DNA of 64,000 nt from Escherichia phage vB-Eco-KMB26. The notes below the pieces were generated by a model. The model did not search any database, was not told where the DNA came from, and saw only the letters and a list, made by a program, of their open reading frames with translations. Both the position numbers and the translations under genes were made by a program. The stretch lies in sequence record OR539218.1; one strand, 5' to 3'. Numbering within the stretch: the first letter of the stretch is position 1; each line of letters opens with the position of its first letter. Below are positions 196 to 59,733 of this stretch, piece after piece.

Positions 196-726
<531 letters not shown>

Positions 727-1182
727 TTAAAAGAGGCTGTTCATTATTCGGTAAAGTGAAGGACCCATCACATATTGCCACTGAGTACGAGGAATAAGAG
801 CAAAAGCATCCATCTCTGGAATCATAACGCCATCTTTATTTTCAAAATAAGACTCGCAATGGCAATTTCTAAACATCTCATGCTCTACTGGAATCGTATA
901 ATAAAATAACTGTAAGTCTTTATTACTAGAATATTTAAATACACCTAGGTCTTCTAGAAGGTCTGGATTATAATTGCTAAAACCGGTCTCTTCTAAGCAT
1001 TCTCTTTTTGCAGCTTCCAGTGCATTCAAATCAGAACTTTCTACGCGGCCCTTTGGAATATCCCAGCGATGTGCCATCATTCCAGGCTTACGAGAACCAG
1101 TAACCCGACCCATAAATAAATCTTTATCTTCTGTCATAAAGATAATACCAGCTGATAGTGTTTTCATTTTAATTTCCTGCAT
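727..1182 (-). CDS. nudE: Nudix hydrolase (T4 gene e.1 / NudE-like)
   Basis: 151-aa ORF with Nudix box GRVESSDLNALEAAKRECLEETG (REx2EExG); position matches T4 e.1. A second ATG at 1165-1167 with AGGAAA SD may be the true start. Confidence 0.85.
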   Translation of the reverse strand: MQEIKMKTLSAGIIFMTEDKDLFMGRVTGSRKPGMMAHRWDIPKGRVESSDLNALEAAKRECLEETGFSNYNPDLLEDLGVFKYSSNKDLQLFYYTIPVEHEMFRNCHCESYFENKDGVMIPEMDAFALIPRTQWQYVMGPSLYRIMNSLF

Positions 1183-1652
1183 TCAGTGATAAAGTTATTT
1201 AAATTTTGAGTATATTTCTTTTCATCAAAAATCTTTTGTTGTCTGCGTAAACGCCATGGCATTTCAATGAACATACGCCATATTCCTGATAATACTGCTG
1301 CTGTAAAAATATTAACAAGTATAGTTAAAAGAACCCAATCTCCTATTCTGTCCATTGGATTTTTTATAAAAAAGTAAAATACGAACGATGATATAGGAAG
1401 ACTAATGATATACCACAGAAGAACCTTCTTATCTGTGAACCAATCAGCATTCGTTAACTTAGCGCGACCGTTTTGAATACATACGAACTTATCATCTGTT
1501 ACAGTAAATGGCTTAGCTGCTTGATATCCCATTCTAAACTCCCTAATCAACAAATTTTTCATATCTTCGGAACAACCATTCCAGTCAACTCTATCAACTG
1601 AAATGCCATCGTCCCCATCATCTAAATCATACCAGCGAGTTTTTAAAATCAT
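1164..1652 (-). CDS. Small membrane protein: N-terminal soluble domain, two predicted TM helices, basic tail ending FITECRKLK
   Basis: 162-aa ORF, ATG start overlapping the upstream stop (ATGA), hydrophobic stretches LLWYIISLPISSFVFYFFI and WVLLTILVNIFTAAVLSGIW. Confidence 0.7.
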   Translation of the reverse strand: MILKTRWYDLDDGDDGISVDRVDWNGCSEDMKNLLIREFRMGYQAAKPFTVTDDKFVCIQNGRAKLTNADWFTDKKVLLWYIISLPISSFVFYFFIKNPMDRIGDWVLLTILVNIFTAAVLSGIWRMFIEMPWRLRRQQKIFDEKKYTQNLNNFITECRKLK

Positions 1653-2011
1653 TTAATTTTCCTACAATCACTCACAAACTCTTCCATTGATTCTTTTTCA
1701 ATATAAGACATATAGCTATTATATTCCTTTAATTGTATTTTGTAATCCTTTTTTCTTTGCCAATTTATTTTAAAATTATCATAATGAAAATATAACATGG
1801 TACCAAAGAATGAAAATAATGAAATCGCTATAGTAAAACGAAGTTCACTCCAAACCTCTGTTATAATTACTGTGCCGTCGATATTTAAAATAAAACAGTC
1901 AATTAACAATCCAATAAGACTACCCGCAAGAGCTGTAAATACTGATACAGCAAGAATTAATAGTGCCTCAGGAAACGAATATTTGACTTTATTTAGTTTT
2001 GGCTTTTGCAT
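1649..2011 (-). CDS. Small two-TM membrane protein, tail ending EEFVSDCRKIK
   Basis: 120-aa ORF with ATG start; hydrophobic segments ALLILAVSVFTALAGSLIGLLI and FTIAISLFSFFGTMLYF; coupled start/stop with neighbours. Confidence 0.7.
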   Translation of the reverse strand: MQKPKLNKVKYSFPEALLILAVSVFTALAGSLIGLLIDCFILNIDGTVIITEVWSELRFTIAISLFSFFGTMLYFHYDNFKINWQRKKDYKIQLKEYNSYMSYIEKESMEEFVSDCRKIK

Positions 2012-2385
2012 CGTGATTCCTTAACAAATTTCATAATTTCATCAAATTCATACATATCTAGCTTAAGCTGGTGTTCCTTTTTAATCTTTTTACACTGAGC
2101 TTTCCAATCACGTACACGTTTACGATAATGTCTTCCTTGATACCAGTATCCTACCCAATTTACGGGTACTAATAAAAGTGGAACTATTAATGGAAGAATT
2201 AGCATTAACACAAGTATTTCGCCAGAATCAATATCAGTCATAACATCTAAAACACCTCCAATAATCAATAGAATTACAAATGATATGAGTATAACAGGAC
2301 CTATTAACACATCAGTAGAAATTATCTGACGCTTTGGTTCATACTTCACAGGTTTACTTGGAAGGTATAGTGATGGTTTTGACAT
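1993..2385 (-). CDS. Small two-TM membrane protein, tail ending MKFVKESRCKSQN
   Basis: ORF track starts at a TTG (2406); first ATG is at 2383-2385 (MSKPSLY...) with AAGGAA SD upstream; two hydrophobic helices. Confidence 0.65.
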   Translation of the reverse strand: MSKPSLYLPSKPVKYEPKRQIISTDVLIGPVILISFVILLIIGGVLDVMTDIDSGEILVLMLILPLIVPLLLVPVNWVGYWYQGRHYRKRVRDWKAQCKKIKKEHQLKLDMYEFDEIMKFVKESRCKSQN

Positions 2386-2968
2386 ATTCTCTACATTCCT
2401 TAACAAATTTTTCTAGTAATAAATCACTTTCAAAATTGGGATTTTCTACAAATTTATCAAAAAGATCATCAACAATAGTTAAGATATTCTTTTTACTAAG
2501 AATACGTTTATTTTCATGCTTCGTTTCAGAATCAACTATAAGAGTAAAGAAATATTTCTTGCCCTGAAATTTTACAGTAGTATCAATATAAAATAAATTT
2601 GACTTTTGTAAATTACGTTTAAACCATGCGTCACTTAAACTATAAACACCGAGATAATCAAAATCGTCGTTTAAATAACAAACCGTCCATTCAGGAGAAA
2701 TGAAATCAGTAAATTCAACATCAAAATCACACGTCAATGAATGAATTGATTCAATACTGTTAATGAGTATTCCAGGACGTATTAAAGACTTTTTACCTCT
2801 AGAAAATCTTCCGGAAAGGCTTTCATCAGTTTCATATGAAGACCCCCAATAGTAATTACGTCCTTCTGCCATGCGTTTAAGAGCATTTAGTAATTGGTCT
2901 GGAACATCAACCTGTCTTTGGAACTCTTCAAACATTGAATTGAAATCACTTTGCATTTTCATTTTCAT
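2354..2968 (-). CDS. Hypothetical protein (204 aa), soluble; C-terminus EKFVKECREYVKTITIPSK
   Basis: ORF with three in-frame ATGs at the N-terminus (MKMKM...); GGAG upstream; no recognisable catalytic motif. Confidence 0.65.
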   Translation of the reverse strand: MKMKMQSDFNSMFEEFQRQVDVPDQLLNALKRMAEGRNYYWGSSYETDESLSGRFSRGKKSLIRPGILINSIESIHSLTCDFDVEFTDFISPEWTVCYLNDDFDYLGVYSLSDAWFKRNLQKSNLFYIDTTVKFQGKKYFFTLIVDSETKHENKRILSKKNILTIVDDLFDKFVENPNFESDLLLEKFVKECREYVKTITIPSK

Positions 2969-2985: not shown

Positions 2986-3007
2986 ATAAGGGGCCGAAGC
3001 CCCTTAT
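2986..3007 (-). terminator. GC-rich hairpin between the 197-aa and 204-aa ORFs (weak terminator or RNA-stability element)
   Basis: ataaggggc-cgaa-gcccctt at palindrome; the same hairpin sequence recurs at 42718-42735; no clear U-run on the transcribed strand. Confidence 0.3.
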
Positions 3008-3009
3008 CA

Positions 3010-3603
3010 TTATTTCAGAGAATTAATGTATTCCTGAACATCGGCAGAGGTAGTTTCAACCCCAGAAATATTACCGTTAAAGGTTTCAACTCGAGCAAGG
3101 GTATCTTCAATATCAACCTTAGTCAGTGCTGCAATTTCAACTACATCATCGGCAGTACTAATTCCAAGGGCATTTGCTGCACGAGTTTCACGGATATATT
3201 CCAATTTAACCGCAAGTTCTTGACGAGCATCATCTAACTCAACTACTTTCTTGGCGATTTCAATTCGCATTTCAGCATAACCGTCAGCCTTAGTAGTCAA
3301 CTGCTCAGCTGTTCGACGATATAGTAAACCGAGTTTAGCATGCATTGTTACATCTTGGCCTTCGGAAAGAAGTTTACGAATTTCACGCTCTTTTGATTCG
3401 GCCTGTCGATTCTTTTCGATAACAAGTTCACGAATACGTTTTTCTTCGTTAATAGATTTAACAGAAGCAGTTTTTAGATCTTTAATTTTATCAAGTAGTT
3501 TTGCTGCTGCAGCAGTATACTGTTCTTCGACAGATAGATTTTTAGCCATAGCAGAACCAAGTTTAGTGCGAATAAACTCAACAATTTTCTTCAGTGTGTT
3601 CAT
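3010..3603 (-). CDS. Coiled-coil protein with PspA/IM30 (phage-shock protein A)-like C-terminal signature
   Basis: 197-aa ORF, ATG with AAGGA SD; helical, charge-rich; C-terminal [24 protein letters not shown] resembles the PspA QAANSS..LDSGKLDEAMARFESF region as I recall it. Confidence 0.55.
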
Positions 3604-4186: not shown

Positions 4187-4278
4187 GTTGATAGTTGTAT
4201 AGTACCATGGAAGAACAGGGATGTAAACAGTTGTTGATAGTTGTATAGTACCATGGAAGAACAGGGATGTAAACAGTT
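4187..4278 (-). promoter_or_regulatory. Tandem duplicated sigma70-type T4 early promoter (2 x ~46 bp)
   Basis: Direct repeat gttgatagttgtatagtaccatggaagaacagggatgtaaacag at 4187-4230 and 4233-4276; each copy reads on the reverse strand TTTACA-N17-TACTAT. Confidence 0.6.
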
Positions 4279-6522: not shown

Positions 6523-6921
6523 TCAGCCTTCATCAACAATAGTGTGAGTATTAGCATTTACGATTTGCCACCAATCAAAGCGATTAGAATCCATCGGTTT
6601 GTTTTCATTTTCTTTGATAATGTCACGGAGTTCATCTTCAGAGAATGCTTTAGCAATTAAATCGGTATACCCACCACGGGGATAATAATTATCACCTGCA
6701 AACAAAAGGAAATTTACCTTCCCGGAAGCAACATATGCTTCCTTAGGATACTTGTTTCCTGCGTGGTCAACCACTTCAATATAACGGTAAGGAATATCGG
6801 TTCTTTCAACCCATTGCCATGCCGCCGCAGGGGAATCGAAAGCATCTACACCTAAACGATTATCTTCATCTTTAGACGGATTATTTTCGTAATCCGCATA
6901 TACATAATATTCAACGTTCAT
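6523..6921 (-). CDS. Hypothetical protein (132 aa)
   Basis: ORF tightly packed with neighbours (2-bp gap, ATGA overlap upstream); no recognisable motif. Confidence 0.6.
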   Translation of the reverse strand: MNVEYYVYADYENNPSKDEDNRLGVDAFDSPAAAWQWVERTDIPYRYIEVVDHAGNKYPKEAYVASGKVNFLLFAGDNYYPRGGYTDLIAKAFSEDELRDIIKENENKPMDSNRFDWWQIVNANTHTIVDEG

Positions 6922-7106
6922 TATTCACCTTTAGAAATTTTATCCATAACAATAGCAATTAAACCAATTAAAAATGCTACTACAAGTGAAAAAACATTTT
7001 CTGCCGTAGTCAATAATCCGCATATAAATCCAACAAACATTGAAAAACTGAAAGCGGAAGCAGAAATTGCAATAGCAACATTTCGAATTAATTCACAACG
7101 TTTCAT
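6921..7106 (-). CDS. Small hydrophobic membrane protein (61 aa, two predicted TM segments)
   Basis: ORF MKRCELIRNVAIAISASAFSFSMFVGFICGLLTTAENVFSLVVAFLIGLIAIVMD...; early promoter immediately upstream. Confidence 0.55.
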   Translation of the reverse strand: MKRCELIRNVAIAISASAFSFSMFVGFICGLLTTAENVFSLVVAFLIGLIAIVMDKISKGE

Positions 7107-7134
7107 TTTATTCTCCTCAGTAGTAGATAGGGTA

Positions 7135-7163
7135 ATAGTATCACTACCCTATCTAAAAGTAAA
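7135..7163 (-). promoter_or_regulatory. T4 early promoter embedded in a palindrome (PeSL-like)
   Basis: Reverse strand TTTACT-N17-TACTAT (plus atagta 7135-7140, agtaaa 7158-7163); -10 sits inside inverted repeat agggta..taccct. Confidence 0.55.
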
Positions 7164-7164
7164 C

Positions 7165-7398
7165 TTATTTTTTACGAAAAATTGATTTATTTTCTGCTGC
7201 CCATTTTTCAATAACTGCAGCAGGACCAGTAACAACAATTTTATCACCGTAATCTTCTGCGGCGAGTTGACCGAAATTATCTAATGCATCACGAAGAACT
7301 CCATGAGGCATTTCACCCATTTTATCTTTCTTGCCAGTGTAAATAAACTCAACTTTTACATCAGCAGTTTCAGCAATAAATTCTTGGTAAGTTTTCAT
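7165..7398 (-). CDS. ipI: Internal protein I-like head protein with capsid-targeting sequence MKTYQEFIAE
   Basis: ORF track begins MEIKM (7410); the second ATG at 7396-7398 gives the canonical IP leader MKTYQEFIAE; position between tRNAs and 57B matches T4 ipI. Confidence 0.75.
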   Translation of the reverse strand: MKTYQEFIAETADVKVEFIYTGKKDKMGEMPHGVLRDALDNFGQLAAEDYGDKIVVTGPAAVIEKWAAENKSIFRKK

Positions 7399-7432
7399 TT
7401 TGATTTCCATTTGGTTTTGTTTTGATAGGGTA

Positions 7433-7461
7433 ATAGTATCACAACTAAAACCCTATGTAAA
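7433..7461 (-). promoter_or_regulatory. T4 early promoter (PeSL-like) upstream of ipI
   Basis: Reverse strand TTTACA-N17-TACTAT (plus atagta 7433-7438, tgtaaa 7456-7461); flanked by inverted repeat ataggg..ccctat. Confidence 0.55.
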
Positions 7462-7486
7462 CAACTTTGTGAAATTATTTTAAATC
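7454..7486. repeat. 33-bp exact direct repeat, copy 1 (spans stop codon of the IP-like gene and the -35 of the ipI promoter)
   Basis: tatgtaaacaactttgtgaaattattttaaatc, identical to 7785-7817. Confidence 0.9.
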
Positions 7487-7732
7487 TTCTAATCGTTTCT
7501 TCATCTTAGAGCCATTTTTAGCAATTTCTCCTGCATCGGAGCATAATGCTAAAAGTGCTTTAACTTTAGTTTGGTCTCCTTTAAAAGATGAAGGATCGAC
7601 CGCAGCAGCAAGTTCTTTAATACGAGAGAAAAGACGCTCAGCTTCAGCTAAAGCCATTCCAAGCTTTACTTCCATACCGTGGGAAGATTCAGTAATAGTA
7701 GTTTTTGTAGCAAACTCTTTGAAAGTTTTCAT
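7475..7732 (-). CDS. Internal-protein-like protein with capsid-targeting-like leader MKTFKEF..ITE
   Basis: 85-aa ORF, ATG with AGGAAAATAAAA SD; N-terminus resembles the IP leader; ends ..EDLK like 57B (..DDLK) inside the shared 33-bp repeat. Confidence 0.6.
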   Translation of the reverse strand: MKTFKEFATKTTITESSHGMEVKLGMALAEAERLFSRIKELAAAVDPSSFKGDQTKVKALLALCSDAGEIAKNGSKMKKRLEDLK

Positions 7733-7763
7733 TTTTATTTTCCTAATTAATTTTGATGTGGTA

Positions 7764-7784
7764 ATAGTATCACTACCTCATCAG

Positions 7785-7792
<8 letters not shown>
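7764..7792 (-). promoter_or_regulatory. T4 early promoter (PeSL-like) upstream of the IP-like gene
   Basis: Reverse strand TTTACA-N17-TACTAT (plus atagta 7764-7769, tgtaaa 7787-7792); -10 within palindrome ggtaatagtatcactacc. Confidence 0.55.
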
Positions 7793-8490
<698 letters not shown>

Positions 8491-42704: not shown

Positions 42705-42738
42705 TCAAAATGAAGAAAGGGGCCGAAGCCCCTTATGA
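42705..42738 (-). terminator. Rho-independent terminator after hoc
   Basis: Hairpin aaggggc-cgaa-gcccctt at 42718-42735 followed on the reverse strand by a U-rich run; preceded by (ATAATC)x3 after the hoc stop. Confidence 0.6.
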
Positions 42739-42750
42739 TTATGATTATGA

Positions 42751-44457
42751 TTATGGATAGGTATAGATGATACCAGTTTCTAAAGCAGTTTTATGAATGA
42801 TGTATCCATTGCGTGATTCTTGAACATCAACTTCTGGATAGTCTTTCATCATCTTCTGAAGAGTGTAACGATGCAGGTAGTATTTACTGTCTGGATCTTC
42901 AGTTTTCCAATCTTTACCTTCTTCGGTCATTTTTTGGATTTCATCCATAACCCACCAACCGCACCAGATATAAGCTGAAGTACGATGTGGAAGAGGATGA
43001 ACATAAGGCAATTCACCTTCTGGTTCTGGAGCAACTTTATCAGTTACCTGAACTTGACCTTCTGCTGTAATAGTTTTGCTATCGTAATCAGTTGCAGTAA
43101 CGACAGCAGTAACTTCAATAGTTTGACTTCCAACAGATGAGGTATCGACAGTATATACGTTAGTTGACCCTTCTACAGGAGAAGAATCTTTCTTCCATGA
43201 GTAAGTAATTTGTGCTTCTTCTGGAGCACCCGTAACATTAGCCGTAAATGTAGCCGAAGCATCTTGCTGAACGTTAATAGAAGGAGGAGTCAATGTAACC
43301 TGTGGATTCATTGTTTTCTTATTAACAGTCAATGATACTTCATTAGAAGTAACTTCCTTTTCATTGTAATTTTCTGCAGTTACTTGCGCTACACACTTAA
43401 CTGTTTTAGCTCCAACTGTGGTAGGAGTATAGTTAAATGTAGTAGTAGTTTCTCCATCGACCAGAGAACCGTCAACATACCACTGATACGTAGCAGACGC
43501 TCCTGGTGGCTGTGAATCCAAGGCAGCAGTAAATTGAACTGGGGTTCCAATTACTCCGGCAGCAGGATTAGCAGGAGTTACGGCTAACGTAGTTGTCTGT
43601 GTCTTCTTATTAACTGTTAATGATACTTCATTAGAAGTAACTGTTTTTGCGTCATAATCTGTTGCTGTTACTTGCGCTACGCATTTAATTCTTTTTACTC
43701 CACTTGTAGTTGGAGTATAGCTAAATGTAGCAGAAGTCGCTTCACCAATTTGAGAATCATCTACATACCACTGATACGTAGCAGATGCCCCATCAGGTTG
43801 AGAAGCTAAGGCAGCAGTAAATTCAACGGCTGTTCCAATCACTCCAGCTGGAGGACTATCAGGAGTTACTGCCAAGGTAGTCGTCTGCGTCTTTTTATTA
43901 ACAGTCAATGATACTTCATTAGAAGTAACGCTTAGTGCATCATAATCTGCCGCAGTTACTTGAGCTACACACTTGATTTTTTTAACTCCGCTTGTGTCAG
44001 GAGTGTAATTGAATGTAGCGTCAGTTGCTTCGTCTACAGGAGAACCGTCAACGTGCCATTGATACGTAGCGTTTGCACCTGATGGCTGTGAAGCTAAGGC
44101 AGCGGTAAATTCAATTGGAGTTCCAATCACTCCAGCATCAGGGCTACCAGGAGTTACAGCTAAAGTAGTTGTTTGTGTCTTATTTTGAACTGTGATAGTT
44201 GTAGTAGCTTCTGCTGTTTCAGCATCAGTATCTGGAACTGTATTTGTTGCAACTACTTTAATAGTCTTTTGTCCAGCAGGTCCTTTTAATACATAATCAA
44301 AAGTTGCTTCAGCTCCATCTTGTGGAGCATCATCTACAGTCCAAGCATATGTAATAGTTCCGCCTCCAGTTTCACCACTGGGTGTAGCAGTAAACTGCTT
44401 AGTTTCATCAATAACCCCTGTCGGTGTTTTAGGAGTTATATCAACTGTAAAAGTCAT
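42751..44457 (-). CDS. hoc: Highly immunogenic outer capsid protein, expanded to five Ig-like domains plus capsid-binding domain
   Basis: 568-aa ORF; N-terminus MTFTVDITPKTPTGVIDETKQF and C-terminal capsid-binding domain ..WCGWWVMDEIQKMTEEGKDW.. as in T4 Hoc; three tandem ~96-aa units each starting KTQTTTLAVTP. Confidence 0.93.
   Translation of the reverse strand: MTFTVDITPKTPTGVIDETKQFTATPSGETGGGTITYAWTVDDAPQDGAEATFDYVLKGPAGQKTIKVVATNTVPDTDAETAEATTTITVQNKTQTTTLAVTPGSPDAGVIGTPIEFTAALASQPSGANATYQWHVDGSPVDEATDATFNYTPDTSGVKKIKCVAQVTAADYDALSVTSNEVSLTVNKKTQTTTLAVTPDSPPAGVIGTAVEFTAALASQPDGASATYQWYVDDSQIGEATSATFSYTPTTSGVKRIKCVAQVTATDYDAKTVTSNEVSLTVNKKTQTTTLAVTPANPAAGVIGTPVQFTAALDSQPPGASATYQWYVDGSLVDGETTTTFNYTPTTVGAKTVKCVAQVTAENYNEKEVTSNEVSLTVNKKTMNPQVTLTPPSINVQQDASATFTANVTGAPEEAQITYSWKKDSSPVEGSTNVYTVDTSSVGSQTIEVTAVVTATDYDSKTITAEGQVQVTDKVAPEPEGELPYVHPLPHRTSAYIWCGWWVMDEIQKMTEEGKDWKTEDPDSKYYLHRYTLQKMMKDYPEVDVQESRNGYIIHKTALETGIIYTYP
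43318..44184. repeat. Three tandem ~288-bp coding repeats inside hoc
   Basis: Plus-strand ttattaacagtcaatgatacttcattagaagtaac recurs at ~43319, ~43607 and ~43896 (period 288-289 bp); coordinates approximate. Confidence 0.85.
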
Positions 44458-55614: not shown

Positions 55615-57672
55615 CTACATTTTGAACTTTTTAGACATTCCGTTGATGTTAACCAAAGAAGCTAAGATTTGAGAAACTTCATTTTCCTCTTCTTTTGATT
55701 CTTCTACAAGGAATTGATTAAATCCAGCCATTGGACGAACTTCACCAGTTTCCATTAGATGGTCTCCATCATATACTGATTCTTCTAATTGTTCAGAAGG
55801 AGGAACGATTGTACCTTCGATTAGATACTTGTTATAAGCAGTTTCTTTCATAAAGTACGTACTTACTTTATTAATCTTCAGTAAAATTCCACGTGGTAGA
55901 ATAACTTCAGCTTCTGATGGAAATCCTGATAAATGACCTGGAACGATAACTTTGATTCGCTCAGCTCCTTTAATTACCATACCCACGCTAGTTTCAGCAT
56001 CTTCATTAGCATATGTAGAATGACTACCCATATGCATCAAATCTTCTGCATCAACGGAACCTTCTCCTTCGCCAGAAAATACTGCGCCAGAATCATCTAG
56101 AGCCATATAGTTTTTACCATGCTCACCGAAGATATTTGGTTTAAGCGATGTGGATACGAAGTTCTTGAAATAGAACATTTTGTTTTCAATGTTATGACGC
56201 AAAGTTTTAAAGGTAACTTCTTGTCCACGATAAAGCGTAGTTCCTGGAGGAAGAACTGAACCTTTAGCGAATGCAGAATCCAACGTCTCGATGTGCTTAA
56301 TAGCTCGTTCCATATATTCTTCACGGGTAGAATCTGGTTTACCCAAAAGGAACGAGTTCATTTCAACATATGAATCTGCACAATAATCTTCAATTACATC
56401 AGATTCAGCCTGAGTCAGTCCTTTTGGAGCTACTTCGGTGCTTGCGTATTCATATGCCTGGGCAGCAGATTCATTAATCAATTTATAAATGCCATTCATG
56501 ACAAATTGAATAATAGCTGTCTTTTCATCTGGTGTGGTTTTAGAACCTTTAACTAAATCATTAATAATTTTCTTAATAACATCAAAGCTATTAGAAATAT
56601 TAATGTCAGCAAGATCGCTTAAAATTTTATCAGTTTTATAATCAAAGAATTCTTTATTCTTTAAATATTCTTGAGAACCTTGATATGTTATATCGCTCTG
56701 CAACTTGATAGATGGATCACGTAAACGTGCATGGGCCAATGCAATATGATTTCGGAAGCTTTCTAGTTCATAATCGTTAGATTTAAAACGAGAAGCACTT
56801 CTCATACCACCGATAGCTCCTTTGCTGAAGTTTGAACCAATCTGGATAACGCCAGAGTTCATCGGACCTTCTGCTTTATATACCGGAACTTTAGATTCAA
56901 ACTCTTGATATTTCTTAGCAGCGAAGCTATCACCCTGAAGCGAAGCATCAACAGTAGAATATTGAGCTTGTGCTGCTAATCGACGACTAATTTTAGTTTT
57001 CTGAATAACAGCTTGGTCCGTGCGCTTATCATTTTCTAAAGCAATAGAAGCAGCAACAGCAACAGCTTTAGGAACAGCATTTCCTGTTTTAACGTCTACA
57101 TAAACATCACCGACCTTTGATTCAACTTTTGTGAATAACTCAGTTGAAATAGGAGGTACACCTGGAATGTCTTCTAAATTGGCATTTTTACGGTAAACCA
57201 TAATATATGCATATTTCTTATCATAGTCCCAGATTTCCTTTAAAAGAACATATCGACCTGCTCCTTTAGTACGTACTAAACGGTCAGCAATAACTTGCAT
57301 TTGACGAGCTGCGCCATTTGTTTTACTTTTTAGTACGCGGAATAGGCATGCGTCGATTTTATACTGTTTCATTGTTTGAAGAGCAGTATCAAAAACGGCA
57401 TTAATGACACCAATTGGATTTCCACCCAAGTTTTTAAGCTTAACTAATGATAGTTTCTCATTAACACCTATCATTACGATATGCATCATTTTATCGCCTG
57501 GCTTAACGTTTTTATTCGTATCACCACCAGAGGTATATGTACAAAATCTAAATCCAGGAAGCACGCTTTCTTCGCCGGCTTGAATAGCAAAAATTTGTGG
57601 TATTTTATGCTTAGGATTTAAGTTAACAACCGGCGCCGAAGCGCCGTCAAATAATTCTGTAATAAGTTCCAT
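55615..57672 (-). CDS. Alt-like ADP-ribosyltransferase, divergent paralog (A)
   Basis: 685-aa ORF; N-terminal ~200 aa colinear with the adjacent alt gene (both start MELITELFD); C-terminal ART motifs YRG .. FVSTSL .. EAEVILPRG. Confidence 0.85.
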   Translation of the reverse strand: MELITELFDGASAPVVNLNPKHKIPQIFAIQAGEESVLPGFRFCTYTSGGDTNKNVKPGDKMMHIVMIGVNEKLSLVKLKNLGGNPIGVINAVFDTALQTMKQYKIDACLFRVLKSKTNGAARQMQVIADRLVRTKGAGRYVLLKEIWDYDKKYAYIMVYRKNANLEDIPGVPPISTELFTKVESKVGDVYVDVKTGNAVPKAVAVAASIALENDKRTDQAVIQKTKISRRLAAQAQYSTVDASLQGDSFAAKKYQEFESKVPVYKAEGPMNSGVIQIGSNFSKGAIGGMRSASRFKSNDYELESFRNHIALAHARLRDPSIKLQSDITYQGSQEYLKNKEFFDYKTDKILSDLADINISNSFDVIKKIINDLVKGSKTTPDEKTAIIQFVMNGIYKLINESAAQAYEYASTEVAPKGLTQAESDVIEDYCADSYVEMNSFLLGKPDSTREEYMERAIKHIETLDSAFAKGSVLPPGTTLYRGQEVTFKTLRHNIENKMFYFKNFVSTSLKPNIFGEHGKNYMALDDSGAVFSGEGEGSVDAEDLMHMGSHSTYANEDAETSVGMVIKGAERIKVIVPGHLSGFPSEAEVILPRGILLKINKVSTYFMKETAYNKYLIEGTIVPPSEQLEESVYDGDHLMETGEVRPMAGFNQFLVEESKEEENEVSQILASLVNINGMSKKFKM

Positions 57673-57675
57673 GAT

Positions 57676-59733
57676 TTATCCTTGAACGAACTTGTAAGGC
57701 ATGTTTGCAATATCTATACAAGACGCAATAATTCCAAGAGATGATTCTACTTTCTGTTTAACGTTTGATGAAACAAATGATGCAAAGTCAACTCTGTCTT
57801 CTATTTCAATATCACCTGTCATTGCAACTACTTCGCCGGTTTCCATTAGACGGTCACCGTCATAAATTACCGATTCGGTGAGTTCTTCTGTGGTCATAAC
57901 TTCAGCTTGAATAAGCTTGTTGTTAGTTTTAACTGTTCCATCATTGTAAGATGCATCGGTTATTTTATTAACTTTGACCATTAATCCACGTGGCAAAATG
58001 ACTTCCATTTCATTTGAAGGTGCTAAACTTCCACCTGGTAAAACAACATTGACTTTATCAGCCCCAGTAATAACCCATCCAATTCCAACTAAATTATCGC
58101 TAGAATTTACTAGTCCTTCATCAGTTTTATCAATAGAAACACTTAAACGCTTTTCGTCTGGTAAAACACCCACAGATGAATCAGTCATCCAGGTACCAAA
58201 AATATTTGGATATAATGATGTTGACACAAAGTTTCTAAAATAAAAAACTCGATTTTTTACCAGTGCTTCATATATTGAAGGTAACATTCGTTGTGAACGA
58301 TACAAAGTAATACCTTTTGGTAATCGTTCACCATTTTTAAAGGCAGAATCTAAATTATCAATAGCTTTTTCTATATCAGATGCTGTCAAAATACTTGTAC
58401 GCTCATCTGGATTATATAATCCCAAAAGAGCGTTATTTATGTCTACATATCCTGAACTTACGTATTCACGAATTCCGCGTTTTTGTGCCGGTGTGTATTT
58501 AGATGAATCTTTATTTTCGACTATAGGATGTAGTGACCATCCAGCGGTAAGAGCATATCCACGCAATTCTCTTCGAATAATCTTTGTTTTTATTGCATTC
58601 CAAGAATTTTGTACTAACTCATTCGCAGCATCTTGATTTAAATGCGAATGCTTGTTAATGTTTCTTTCTAACCAAGCACCTTTATATTTTTCTAAAGTAT
58701 CATCAACTATAGAAGCAATAGTTTCTAAAGTTTTTATTGAAGTAATAGATTCTTTTCGTAATCTTTCTAAAGCTTTATTTTTTATTTCTGCATTAACATC
58801 AGATTCTTTATCTTCAGGAATTATAGAAGCTTCTCTGAATGCCATTCCAGCTGTAACACTACTAAGAGCATTCTCTAATGCAAATCCTGAAGTAGAAATA
58901 ACAGTTAATTCATTAGCGTCAGAAATTAAAGGAGCGTCAGCAGGTTTATTTAATTCTGCTGCTGAAGCCTCAAATTTTTGAAACATCGGCGTTTCAAATC
59001 TAGAAGATTCCAATGATTGACTTTGCGCAATTGCTCTACGGGAAATTTTAACTTTAACGATTACAGCTTGGTCAGAACGTTTATCATTTTCTTGCGCAAT
59101 AGATGCTGCAATTGCCTCATTTTTAGTTACTTGAGCTCCAGTATCTTTATTGATATAAACATCACCGACCTTCGATTCAACTTTAGTAAAGAGCTCAGTA
59201 CTAATTTCCGGAACTCCCGGAATGTCTTCTAGTGATACATTTTTGCGATGTATAAGAATATATGCATACTTTTTATCGTAATCCCAGAGTTCCTTAAGAA
59301 GGACGTATCTGCCACCTGAACGACTACGGATAAGTCTATCAGCAATAACTTGAATTTGTCGAGCTTGACCAGCGGTTTTAGACTTAAGAATACGAAGCAT
59401 ACAGGCATCAATTTTATACTGACGCATTGTTTGCATCGCAACAGTAAAAACTGAATTGATATAATTAATTGGGCTTGGACCAAGACCTTTTAATTTAGCA
59501 ATTGAACCTTTAGCAGTTAATGTAAAAGGAACAATATGCATCATTTTATCGCCCATCTTTAAATCGCGATTAGTATCACCTCCAGATGTATAGGTACATA
59601 AACGAAAGCCTGGTTGTTCAATTGCATCATCAACATGAACTGAAAAAATTTGCGGTATTTTCTTCTTTGGATTTAAGTTTGTAATCGGAAGAGTAGTATC
59701 TTCGTCAAATAATTCTGTAATAAGTTCCATCAT
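57676..59733 (-). CDS. alt: Alt, ADP-ribosyltransferase (head-packaged); likely T4 Alt orthologue
   Basis: 685-aa ORF; ART motifs LYRSQ .. FVSTSL .. EMEVILPRG; stop 3 nt before the start of paralog A; TATAAATA box upstream; second ATG at 59730 is an alternative start. Confidence 0.88.
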   Translation of the reverse strand: MMELITELFDEDTTLPITNLNPKKKIPQIFSVHVDDAIEQPGFRLCTYTSGGDTNRDLKMGDKMMHIVPFTLTAKGSIAKLKGLGPSPINYINSVFTVAMQTMRQYKIDACMLRILKSKTAGQARQIQVIADRLIRSRSGGRYVLLKELWDYDKKYAYILIHRKNVSLEDIPGVPEISTELFTKVESKVGDVYINKDTGAQVTKNEAIAASIAQENDKRSDQAVIVKVKISRRAIAQSQSLESSRFETPMFQKFEASAAELNKPADAPLISDANELTVISTSGFALENALSSVTAGMAFREASIIPEDKESDVNAEIKNKALERLRKESITSIKTLETIASIVDDTLEKYKGAWLERNINKHSHLNQDAANELVQNSWNAIKTKIIRRELRGYALTAGWSLHPIVENKDSSKYTPAQKRGIREYVSSGYVDINNALLGLYNPDERTSILTASDIEKAIDNLDSAFKNGERLPKGITLYRSQRMLPSIYEALVKNRVFYFRNFVSTSLYPNIFGTWMTDSSVGVLPDEKRLSVSIDKTDEGLVNSSDNLVGIGWVITGADKVNVVLPGGSLAPSNEMEVILPRGLMVKVNKITDASYNDGTVKTNNKLIQAEVMTTEELTESVIYDGDRLMETGEVVAMTGDIEIEDRVDFASFVSSNVKQKVESSLGIIASCIDIANMPYKFVQG

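Follow-up and report, generated by a model that had tools for sequence, protein, structure and literature searches.

T4 is the best-studied large phage, and roughly half of its genes are without a function. Its small membrane proteins include Imm and Sp, which act in superinfection exclusion, RI and RIII, which act in lysis inhibition, and the holin T. T4-type genomes are reportedly shuffled in a modular fashion by PeSL cassettes, units that combine an early promoter with a stem-loop. The internal proteins (IPI, IPII, IPIII and Bas37_0260) are otherwise unrelated proteins from a hyperplastic region that have in common a terminal peptide of ~10 residues at the gene boundary, an N-terminal signal for packaging that is removed by cleavage. 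Bas37_0260, for example, is described as having no homology to known internal proteins except for the N-terminal signal sequence (10.1101/2025.11.20.689424). Here, we analyzed a stretch of 64,000 nucleotides (nt) from Escherichia phage vB-Eco-KMB26 (OR539218.1), called the window in the following, in which four consecutive minus-strand genes, identified by sequence as the orthologues of T4 e.5, e.4, e.3 and e.2, encode a common motif close to their C-termini. This motif, the box, is a composite: it is a peptide motif in which the ribosome-binding site of the next cistron is embedded.

The four open reading frames (ORFs) were assigned by full-length profile matches in PHROGs (E-values of 3e-78, 2e-58, 2e-70 and 9e-110 for e.2, e.3, e.4 and e.5), by an identity of ~84-97% to the T4 counterparts and by the same order between e.6 and nudE. 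Up to the stop codon, e.2 ends with NNFITECRKLK, e.3 with EEFVSDCRKIK and e.4 with MKFVKESRCKSQN, in which the box has the variant form FVKESRC. e.5 ends with EKFVKECREYVKTITIPSK; here, FVKECREY is followed by nine further residues (VKTITIPSK). A preliminary description, made from the letters alone, had noticed a common C-terminal motif at the junctions; the tails could be confirmed, and the endings given for e.2 and e.3 were correct, but e.5 does not stop at EKFVKECREY as had been stated. In all six frames of the window, the strict pattern F[IV]x[ED]CR has three matches, with 0.09 expected, and a loose form adds e.4 alone. In the assembled genome of Bas37 (KarlGJung), the strict pattern was found only in e.2, e.3 and e.5 (0.17 expected), and the loose form added e.4 and two matches in short spurious ORFs. 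All box matches lie 3 to 11 codons before the stops of the four consecutive genes. The preliminary description had named occurrence of the motif at unrelated gene boundaries as a finding that would speak against a family; in fact, the box is present nowhere else in the six frames of the genome.

The likeness extends to the nucleotides. The 16-nt sequence AAATTTGTTAAGGAAT has exactly two copies in the window, both on the minus strand, at 2395-2410 (e.5/e.4 junction) and 2016-2031 (e.4/e.3 junction). It is 1 of 21 exact direct repeats of at least 16 nt in the window, where ~1.1 are expected, and since both copies stand in the same frame and at the equivalent place in adjacent genes, the pair is implausible as a product of chance. 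The corresponding nucleotides are TGTAGGAAAATTAAATGA in the e.3 tail and TGCAGGAAATTAAAATGA in the e.2 tail. If the box had arisen by chance or by convergence among unrelated genes, one would expect full-length alignments to stay at background without the motif and databases to separate the genes, and both are the case. However, this explanation is effectively refuted by three to four matches, against 0.09 to 0.5 expected, at one and the same position in each of four neighboring genes, by the recurrence of the pattern in three genera and in metagenomic contigs and by profile P values of 1e-5 to 1e-7 that lie above all block-shuffled controls. Searches of IMG/VR with e.4 gave five to six loci. 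When IMG/VR was searched for the pattern FIxECRK-stop/ATGA, the matches in long ORFs came from T4-like contigs of ~120-172 kb and from the short contig L006; the remaining matches, in frames of 74 codons at most, look like chance and were rejected.

Among the described systems, the capsid-targeting sequence of the internal proteins would be the closest analogy to the box, with a different terminus, fate and function. Like the internal proteins, e.2 to e.5 are otherwise unrelated, are encoded in a hyperplastic region and have a terminal peptide of ~10 residues at the gene boundary, but the box is C-terminal and overlaps the ribosome-binding site of the next gene. A true relationship to the capsid-targeting sequence MKTYQEFIAE, in which gp21 cleaves after I-x-E, would make the box a mark for prohead contact or cleavage. 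The two have F-I-x-E in common, the FIAE codons of a Dhakavirus e.5-like gene (TTTATTGCTGAA) are identical to those of a gene at window 7369-7398, and internal-protein genes lie in the same region of the genome. Against this, the match is one of four residues only, the capsid-targeting sequence acts from the N-terminus and the box stands at the C-terminus of proteins some of which are membrane proteins, and the E of the box can vary (some e.2 relatives have M or G); we consider this relationship highly improbable. The gene at window 7369-7398 (minus strand) is internal-protein-like, encodes 77 amino acids and starts with MKTYQEFIAE; its likeness to FIAE is short and possibly due to chance.

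Along e.5, e.4, e.3, e.2 and nudE, neighboring genes overlap by 32, 19, 4 and then 4 or 19 nt. The start codon of e.4 lies in the E-Y-V codons of e.5. The Shine-Dalgarno (SD) sequence of e.3 is AAGGA, formed by the K-E codons of the e.4 box and placed 6 nt before the e.3 ATG; that of e.2 is AGGAAA, formed by the R-K codons of the e.3 box, with AGGA 7 nt before the e.2 ATG. Likewise, AGGAAA of the e.2 box is an SD sequence for the ATG at 1167, with AGGA 7 nt upstream. Thus, the junctions carry the SD sequence and start codon of the next gene, as had been proposed before. The start of nudE is ambiguous: the annotated ATG at 1182 sits among the codons of the e.2 box and lacks an SD sequence, the alternative ATG (1167) shares ATGA with the e.2 stop, and the N-terminus lengths of orthologues fit 1182. 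Among 35 distinct junction variants, 23 as scored, and more after correction of mis-called internal ATGs, have the SD sequence inside the box, in the forms AAGGA (K-E or K-G codons), GAGGA (E-E codons) or AGGAAA (R-K codons). This embedding explains much of the variable positions 3 and 4 of the box. We also considered an out-of-frame ATG in GA-ATG-Y as a conserved start, but it opens only a methionine codon followed by a stop or short in-frame extensions and lacks a properly spaced SD sequence. A scan of the four junctions revealed no hairpin and no strong promoter or terminator, and promoter-like sites were not in excess. Since the genes overlap with neither promoter nor terminator in between, translational coupling, which the preliminary description had suggested, is plausible; e.5 to e.2 form one overlapping run with nudE, and this run would be translationally coupled.

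The box was also found in relatives. In Mosigvirus, e.5 contains FIMECREYVK, e.4 ends with FVKEIRCKSLNS, e.3 with FIKECRK and a fifth protein with two transmembrane (TM) segments with NFIKECRGK. The Dhakavirus boxes are FIAECREYAKEVRNV (e.5-like), FIKECKS (e.3-type) and FIEECRK (e.2), and the metagenomic contig L047 has NFVKECRGQ, QFIREVRNAKTR, KFIDDCKNWR and NFIKMCRNS, with nudE next. When windows of seven residues were ranked by conservation across genera, the box came 1st of 179 in e.2, 2nd of 117 in e.3 and 8th of 125 in e.4; in e.5, the window ECREYVK tied for rank 1. Every full-length relative of e.2 found in a search across 1.84 billion representative proteins ends F-I-x-x-C-R, and F154, I155, C158 and R159 are among the 19 positions that are invariant in nine e.2-family sequences, down to 25% identity with e.2 of the window. 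Five other matches to the e.2 representative (P0112, P0118, P0120, P0121 and P0123, the last with a repetitive sequence) were long and repetitive, looked low-complexity and were rejected. P0122, a protein of 83 residues with the e.2 tail, was set aside as well because its locus did not yield this protein on translation. The fifth two-TM protein, here called EX (~100 amino acids [aa], ending NF[IV]KECRG[KQ]), was found at L008:6652-6957, L013 ~6644-6949 and L047:56-391; it is absent from the window.

Is it the peptide or the nucleotide sequence that is maintained? The codons of the boxes vary synonymously (TGT/TGC; AGA/AGG/CGT/CGC/CGA; TTT/TTC), and the box is retained when another gene follows, as in Mosigvirus e.3 and Dhakavirus e.2. 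Moreover, FIAECREY of the Dhakavirus e.5-like protein is retained though the next start lies 22 nt past the box and has its own GAGG. Synonymous variation together with retention before other genes or before starts with their own SD sequence argues for selection on the peptide; as far as sequence comparison goes, the box is thus shown to be under protein-level purifying selection and not a mere by-product of a ribosome-binding site. If the box were instead purely an RNA-level element, a cassette of U-rich enhancer, SD sequence, spacer and AUG that was copied between junctions, the peptide likeness would be such a by-product. The SD sequence of the next gene is indeed inside the box in most junction variants, in agreement with the contexts in the window, positions 3 and 4 shift from K-E to K-G while AAGGA/AAAGGA stays, and all the genes overlap. 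However, the Dhakavirus e.5-like box is kept with no SD sequence in it, e.2 of L047 has its SD sequence after the stop, Arg and Cys are kept through synonymous changes that include AGR to CGN, and F, I, C and R do not vary even among distant e.2 relatives. We therefore consider a purely RNA-level element unlikely.

According to hydropathy, e.2, e.3 and e.4 have two TM segments followed by a membrane-proximal tail rich in K and R, whereas e.5 has no TM segment. Two TM helices and a basic tail had already been noticed in three of the proteins; e.2 has, in addition, a soluble N-domain of 77 aa (residues 1-77), followed by TM1 (78-96; nt 1365-1421), TM2 (106-129; nt 1266-1337) and a tail of 33 aa. 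In e.3, TM1 extends over residues ~16-42 (nt 1886-1966) and TM2 over ~59-75 (nt 1787-1837), with a tail of 45 aa; in e.4, the segments are at ~27-49 (nt 2239-2307) and ~57-75 (nt 2161-2217), and the predicted cytoplasmic tail has 55 aa. The N-flanks of the three proteins are K/R-rich as well, and the loops between the TM segments are short and acidic. By the positive-inside rule, the three would adopt an N-in/C-in topology with all boxes facing the cytoplasm. The AlphaFold2 model of e.2 (predicted local distance difference test [pLDDT] of 74.6) consists of a small N-domain and TM1, followed by a single long helix (103-161) in which TM2 and the tail are continuous and whose tip carries the box. 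That of e.5 (pLDDT of 65) is a soluble alpha/beta protein with the box within the last helix (183-198). Thus, e.2, e.3 and e.4 belong to the small hairpin proteins of the inner membrane, e.5 is soluble, and the C-terminus of each of the four is an amphipathic helix with [LM]-x-x-F-[IV]-x-x-C-[RK] as its cap.

As read from the sequences, the spacing L/M-xx-F-xxx-C-xx-I/L/Y is a heptad pattern that puts the Cys on the hydrophobic face of the helix. In some members, this Cys is replaced by V, S or I. Its replaceability and its position on the hydrophobic face favor helix packing over catalysis or metal binding. Should the Cys nevertheless be the functional center, it could be a metal, redox or disulfide site between tails or, within e.2, between C27 and C158. 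A Cys is present in most boxes, the N-domain of e.2 has a second invariant Cys, and e.5 also has a conserved W-x-V-C. But Val takes its place in some Dhakavirus e.5-like proteins and in e.3a of L047, Ser or Ile is found in e.4, where the Cys is moved by two positions, and the tails are predicted to be in the reducing cytoplasm, which makes a function of this kind very improbable. No solved structure was matched when searched by sequence with e.2, e.5 and e.6. Scans against Pfam, NCBIfam and PADLOC gave sub-threshold noise only, the local Pfam copy giving no match; PF26896 (Phage_T4_Y06M, e.2) and PF26876 (e.5) are precomputed on relatives, and the UniProt names of the T4 proteins are of the Y06M type.

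The preliminary description had taken the genes for a tandem-duplicated family and had proposed alignments as a check. Pairwise full-length comparisons without the motif were at background (z-scores of -1.7 to 0.4), with 2.4 for e.3/e.4, and PHROGs has four separate families (2203, 2330, 2604 and 2607). When profiles were made from sequences of Tequatrovirus, Mosigvirus and Dhakavirus, similarity was confined to the last 15 to 40 residues: P was 1.8e-5 over 15 columns for e.2/e.3, ~1e-4 over 37 to 39 columns for e.3/e.4 and 8e-4 to 4e-3 over 13 to 15 (up to 17) columns for e.5 versus e.2 or e.3, and no tail match was obtained for e.5 versus e.4 (P = 0.22). Taken over all profile comparisons, the alignments of e.5 with the other three covered just 7 to 17 columns, at P values from ~1e-3 to 0.2. 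The single e.3-type gene of Dhakavirus matched the e.3 profile over its full length (6e-13) and the e.4 profile over 113 columns (Prob 90.8, P = 1.2e-6), the latter with a score of 41.1 compared with a mean of 17.9 and a maximum of 29.3 for block-shuffled controls. e.3 and e.4 also share the N-terminus M-x-K-P-x-L. The e.3-type profile matched the TM1-TM2-tail part of e.2 over 84 columns (P = 9.7e-7; score of 43.3 versus a shuffled maximum of 25.9). In the related contig L047, the adjacent genes at 391-768 and 755-1114 are 34% identical over their full length (BLASTP, E = 4e-19), so tandem duplication does occur in the e.3-type family. Both are e.3-type, and their matches to e.4 are weak (P = 0.004 and 0.064); the 126-aa gene of L047, tried as a member of e.4, is e.3-type by profile. 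On these alignments, tandem paralogy is demonstrated only for e.3-type genes and is probable for e.3/e.4. e.2 would share at least a homologous tail module and e.5, which is soluble, only the box; all four as one paralogous family is not demonstrable from the alignments.

A comparison of gene content across T4-like genomes, which had also been proposed, revealed that the number of membrane members indeed varies. The window phage has e.2, e.3 and e.4, T2-type phages have e.3 and e.4, and Mosigvirus has e.3, e.4 and EX, to which Mosigvirus-like L013 adds e.2; Dhakavirus has one e.3-type gene and e.2, and in L047, a row of four is made up of EX, two genes of the e.3 type and e.2. In T2, PP01, PST, the ZN18 type (L005, Yersinia phage) and many others, e.2 is precisely absent and e.3 is joined to nudE. 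In these phages, e.3 ends with FVIDCRK-LK and contains the final e.2 codons (AAA TTA AAA TGA AAA CAT), and the crossover between presence and absence of e.2 falls in the shared sequence TGCAGGAAA inside the box (e.g., L005:5560-5900). The comparison shows the repeated box to be the crossover point for presence or absence of e.2. In T4 itself, e.2 is broken (102 aa, annotated as e.2a/e.2b; L001, 2153-2461), whereas it is intact with 162 aa in the window; truncated forms of 102 to 122 aa are common. Gene number would thus rise by tandem duplication and fall when unequal crossover at the box deletes a gene. The 16-nt identity of the two junctions is found in Tequatrovirus only (11/18 in Mosigvirus), which suggests local homogenization.

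These data might also be taken to mean that the box is mainly a recombination linker for in-frame gain, loss and shuffling of genes, homogenized by gene conversion and with no role in the protein. The exact joint of e.2 gain and loss inside TGCAGGAAA, the restriction of the 16-nt identity to Tequatrovirus and the fact that the same box precedes different genes in different genera would be in line with such a linker, for which the PeSL boundary cassettes are a T4-like precedent. But the repeats are just 9 to 16 nt long, nucleotides differ between genera while amino acids are kept, and selection for evolvability alone leaves the deep-divergence invariance of F-I-x-x-C-R unexplained; a box without a protein role is, in our view, quite unlikely. 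Like the PeSL cassettes, the box is a short conserved boundary sequence in hyperplastic regions and a joint for gene gain and loss. Unlike these non-coding promoter/terminator units, the box junctions lie inside coding sequence, are conserved as peptide and have neither promoter nor hairpin; the sole hairpin (2986-3007) is upstream of e.5.

Several further features were observed in the relatives. In Mosigvirus and Dhakavirus (L008:4231-5025; L015:4294-5330), e.3 is followed by three to four tandem small soluble paralogues, most of which end WVSSSxxC; divergent copies end FSSSMSC or YPSSC, and most junctions are TGCTAAGGNNNNNNNATG. These paralogues make a second tandem family, whose C-terminal Cys is conserved. 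A soluble Dhakavirus protein of 109 aa (L015:5582-5911; also in L009, L016 and L033) ends with KLFLEYCRSDVQL and has a box-like F-L-x-x-C-R. Finally, Dhakavirus e.2 (L018, L030, L036 and others) has two mosaic forms with the N-domain and the box in common and different TM regions, one of them Tequatrovirus-like in the TM region (AIEMPWRLRRQQRLYDEGK).

Published fitness data are available for the genes. In a CRISPRi-ART study (PMC11879866), T4 e.2 to e.6 are listed as of unknown essentiality and as "Not Fit" upon knock-down. A transposon library of Bas37 was analyzed by HIDEN-SEQ (10.1101/2025.11.20.689424, Extended Data Table 7), and according to this table, bas37_0236 to bas37_0240 (e.2 to e.6) are non-essential on K-12 and e is essential. 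On uropathogenic Escherichia coli CFT073 versus K-12, e.6 (log2 fold change of -6.49) was the most strongly depleted gene of the neighborhood and e.5 was depleted as well (-3.62), both with an adjusted p of 0.00000; the changes for e.2 (-1.65), e.3 (-0.36) and e.4 (-0.33) were not significant (10.1101/2025.11.20.689424). On CFE303 versus K-12, neither e.2 (-2.50, p of 0.10) nor e.6 (-1.37) nor e.3 to e.5 changed significantly, and the same was true for all of e.2 to e.6 on CFE299 (10.1101/2025.11.20.689424). Knock-out plasmids for bas37_0239 and bas37_0240 were built; the text of that report gives no pairing of these genes with a defense system (10.1101/2025.11.20.689424). Going by the tabulated values, e.5 is a host-specific fitness factor. 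The anti-defense role that had been considered earlier, or a role in host range, is indirectly indicated for e.5, by its depletion on CFT073 in that table, and for none of e.2, e.3 and e.4. A role in lysis timing, also considered, found no support: the late promoters (TATAAATA) are found only just before e and not inside the e.2-e.5 cluster, no holin family was matched, and the insertion mutants are fit. e.2 to e.4 resemble Imm, Sp, RI, RIII and holin T in their small size, in their association with the membrane, in being early or accessory and in being dispensable under laboratory conditions, but they have no sequence similarity to them (Pfam, PHROGs, NCBIfam, PADLOC), and the genes of those proteins lie elsewhere in the genome.

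The explanation that we favor, with about even confidence, is that the four proteins share the box as a cytoplasmic motif for helix packing or docking, within an accessory, host-specific module. The box would be a common surface at the cytoplasmic side, which may either assemble e.2 to e.5 with each other and thereby tether e.5 to the membrane or bind one common cytoplasmic partner. The module would have an accessory, host-specific fitness function and would be expressed before the late genes, and redundancy among e.2, e.3 and e.4 may mask single-gene phenotypes. The importance of e.5 and e.6 on a clinical E. coli strain suggests that silent knock-outs of the membrane members may reflect such redundancy. 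A more specific version is doubtful: the docking helix would recruit the soluble host-range factor e.5, together with e.6, to the inner membrane by way of redundant, duplicating two-TM anchors (e.2, e.3, e.4 and EX), or all of them would grip one host target.

Several observations weigh against a docking motif. The Cys of e.4 is displaced by two residues, positions 3 and 4 (K-E, K-G, E-E) are largely explicable by the embedded SD sequence alone, and the F-I/V codons, being U-rich, could enhance translation. The profile matches depend on the box in part: without it, the Dhakavirus e.3-type/e.4 match drops to P = 1.4e-4 over 63 columns and the e.3-type/e.2 match to P = 0.003. The e.5 model is only of moderate confidence (pLDDT of 65) and gave no informative fold match. 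Moreover, e.2, e.3 and e.4 are listed with no significant phenotype in K-12, CFT073, CFE299 and CFE303 (10.1101/2025.11.20.689424), and T4 has a broken e.2 and T2 none, so that e.2 to e.4 cannot be obligatory partners of e.5.

If the docking motif is real, the locus would be an unrecognized membrane-associated counter-defense or host-adaptation module of T-even phages, in which the box drives its own copy-number evolution. One conserved peptide joins four T4 orphan families, and a fifth in relatives, into a single testable module. One short sequence is subject to three constraints, as peptide motif, ribosome-binding site and recombination joint, and the locus illustrates how gene number can change in phage hyperplastic regions with reading frames and coupling intact. 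No paper that discusses e.2 to e.5 was retrieved from the literature by gene name, and the publications that could be searched describe neither a function of these genes nor a box common to them; in the databases, the four stand as unrelated families. All T4 annotations already include the genes, and the novelty would seem to lie in the common box and its three roles.

The first 3.7 kb of the window are 100% identical to Escherichia phage KarlGJung (Bas37, MZ501089; Tequatrovirus) and to the Yersinia phages PYps14T and PYps15T and 90-99% identical to several hundred other T-even genomes, which places the window phage in Tequatrovirus. On the minus strand, and in comparison with the T4 and Bas37 annotations, the order is e.6, a hairpin, e.5, e.4, e.3, e.2, nudE, late promoters and e (Table 1). 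The genes had been described as downstream of lysozyme and beside the lysis gene e; they are transcriptionally upstream of e, and although they are in its neighborhood, nudE lies between e.2 and e. The ATG at 2385 was taken as the start of e.4 because the alignment to the phrog_2604 profile begins at residue 8 of the ORF that starts with TTG; annotations agree.

Table 1. Features of the e.6-to-e region of the window
Feature	Position	Strand	Remarks
e.6 orthologue (bas37_0240)	3010..3603	minus	197-aa coiled-coil protein, directly upstream of e.5
UUCG-loop hairpin between e.6 and e.5	2986..3007	minus	upstream edge of the overlapping e.5-to-nudE run
e.5 orthologue (bas37_0239)	2354..2968	minus	204 aa; phrog_2607; PF26876
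e.5 box F-V-K-E-C-R	2390..2407	minus	e.4 ATG follows at 2385
e.4 orthologue (bas37_0238)	1993..2385	minus	130 aa from ATG 2385; phrog_2604
e.4 box F-V-K-E-S-R-C	2008..2028	minus	e.3 ATG (2011) inside R-C codons
e.3 orthologue (bas37_0237)	1649..2011	minus	120 aa; phrog_2330
e.3 box F-V-S-D-C-R	1661..1678	minus	ATGA stop/start overlap 1649-1652
e.2 orthologue (bas37_0236)	1164..1652	minus	162 aa; phrog_2203; PF26896
e.2 box F-I-T-E-C-R	1176..1193	minus	annotated nudE ATG (1182) inside E-C codons
nudE, Nudix hydrolase	727..1182	minus	final gene of the overlapping run; start 1182 or 1167
Late promoters, two copies	704-724		between nudE and e
e (lysozyme)	196-690	minus	

The hairpin upstream of e.5 has a terminator-like score only on the plus strand in the scan. 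Its sequence, AAGGGGCCGAAGCCCCTTAT, has two exact copies in the window, at 2988-3007 and 42717-42736, ~40 kb apart. e.6 is highly conserved across the three genera and has no family match. At the other end of the region, denV (window ~1-200, cut by the window start) directly adjoins e; ipII and ipIII, which intervene in T4, are absent here. Further exact direct repeats in the window, of 16 to 46 nt, are a tandem copy of 46 nt at 4187/4233 (4187-4278), repeated blocks of 18 to 33 nt at ~7.1-7.8 kb (7126-7817), a series at 43.3-44.1 kb (43319-44136) whose repeats are spaced by 288 nt and three repeats ~2055 nt apart at 57.1-59.7 kb (57100-59730).

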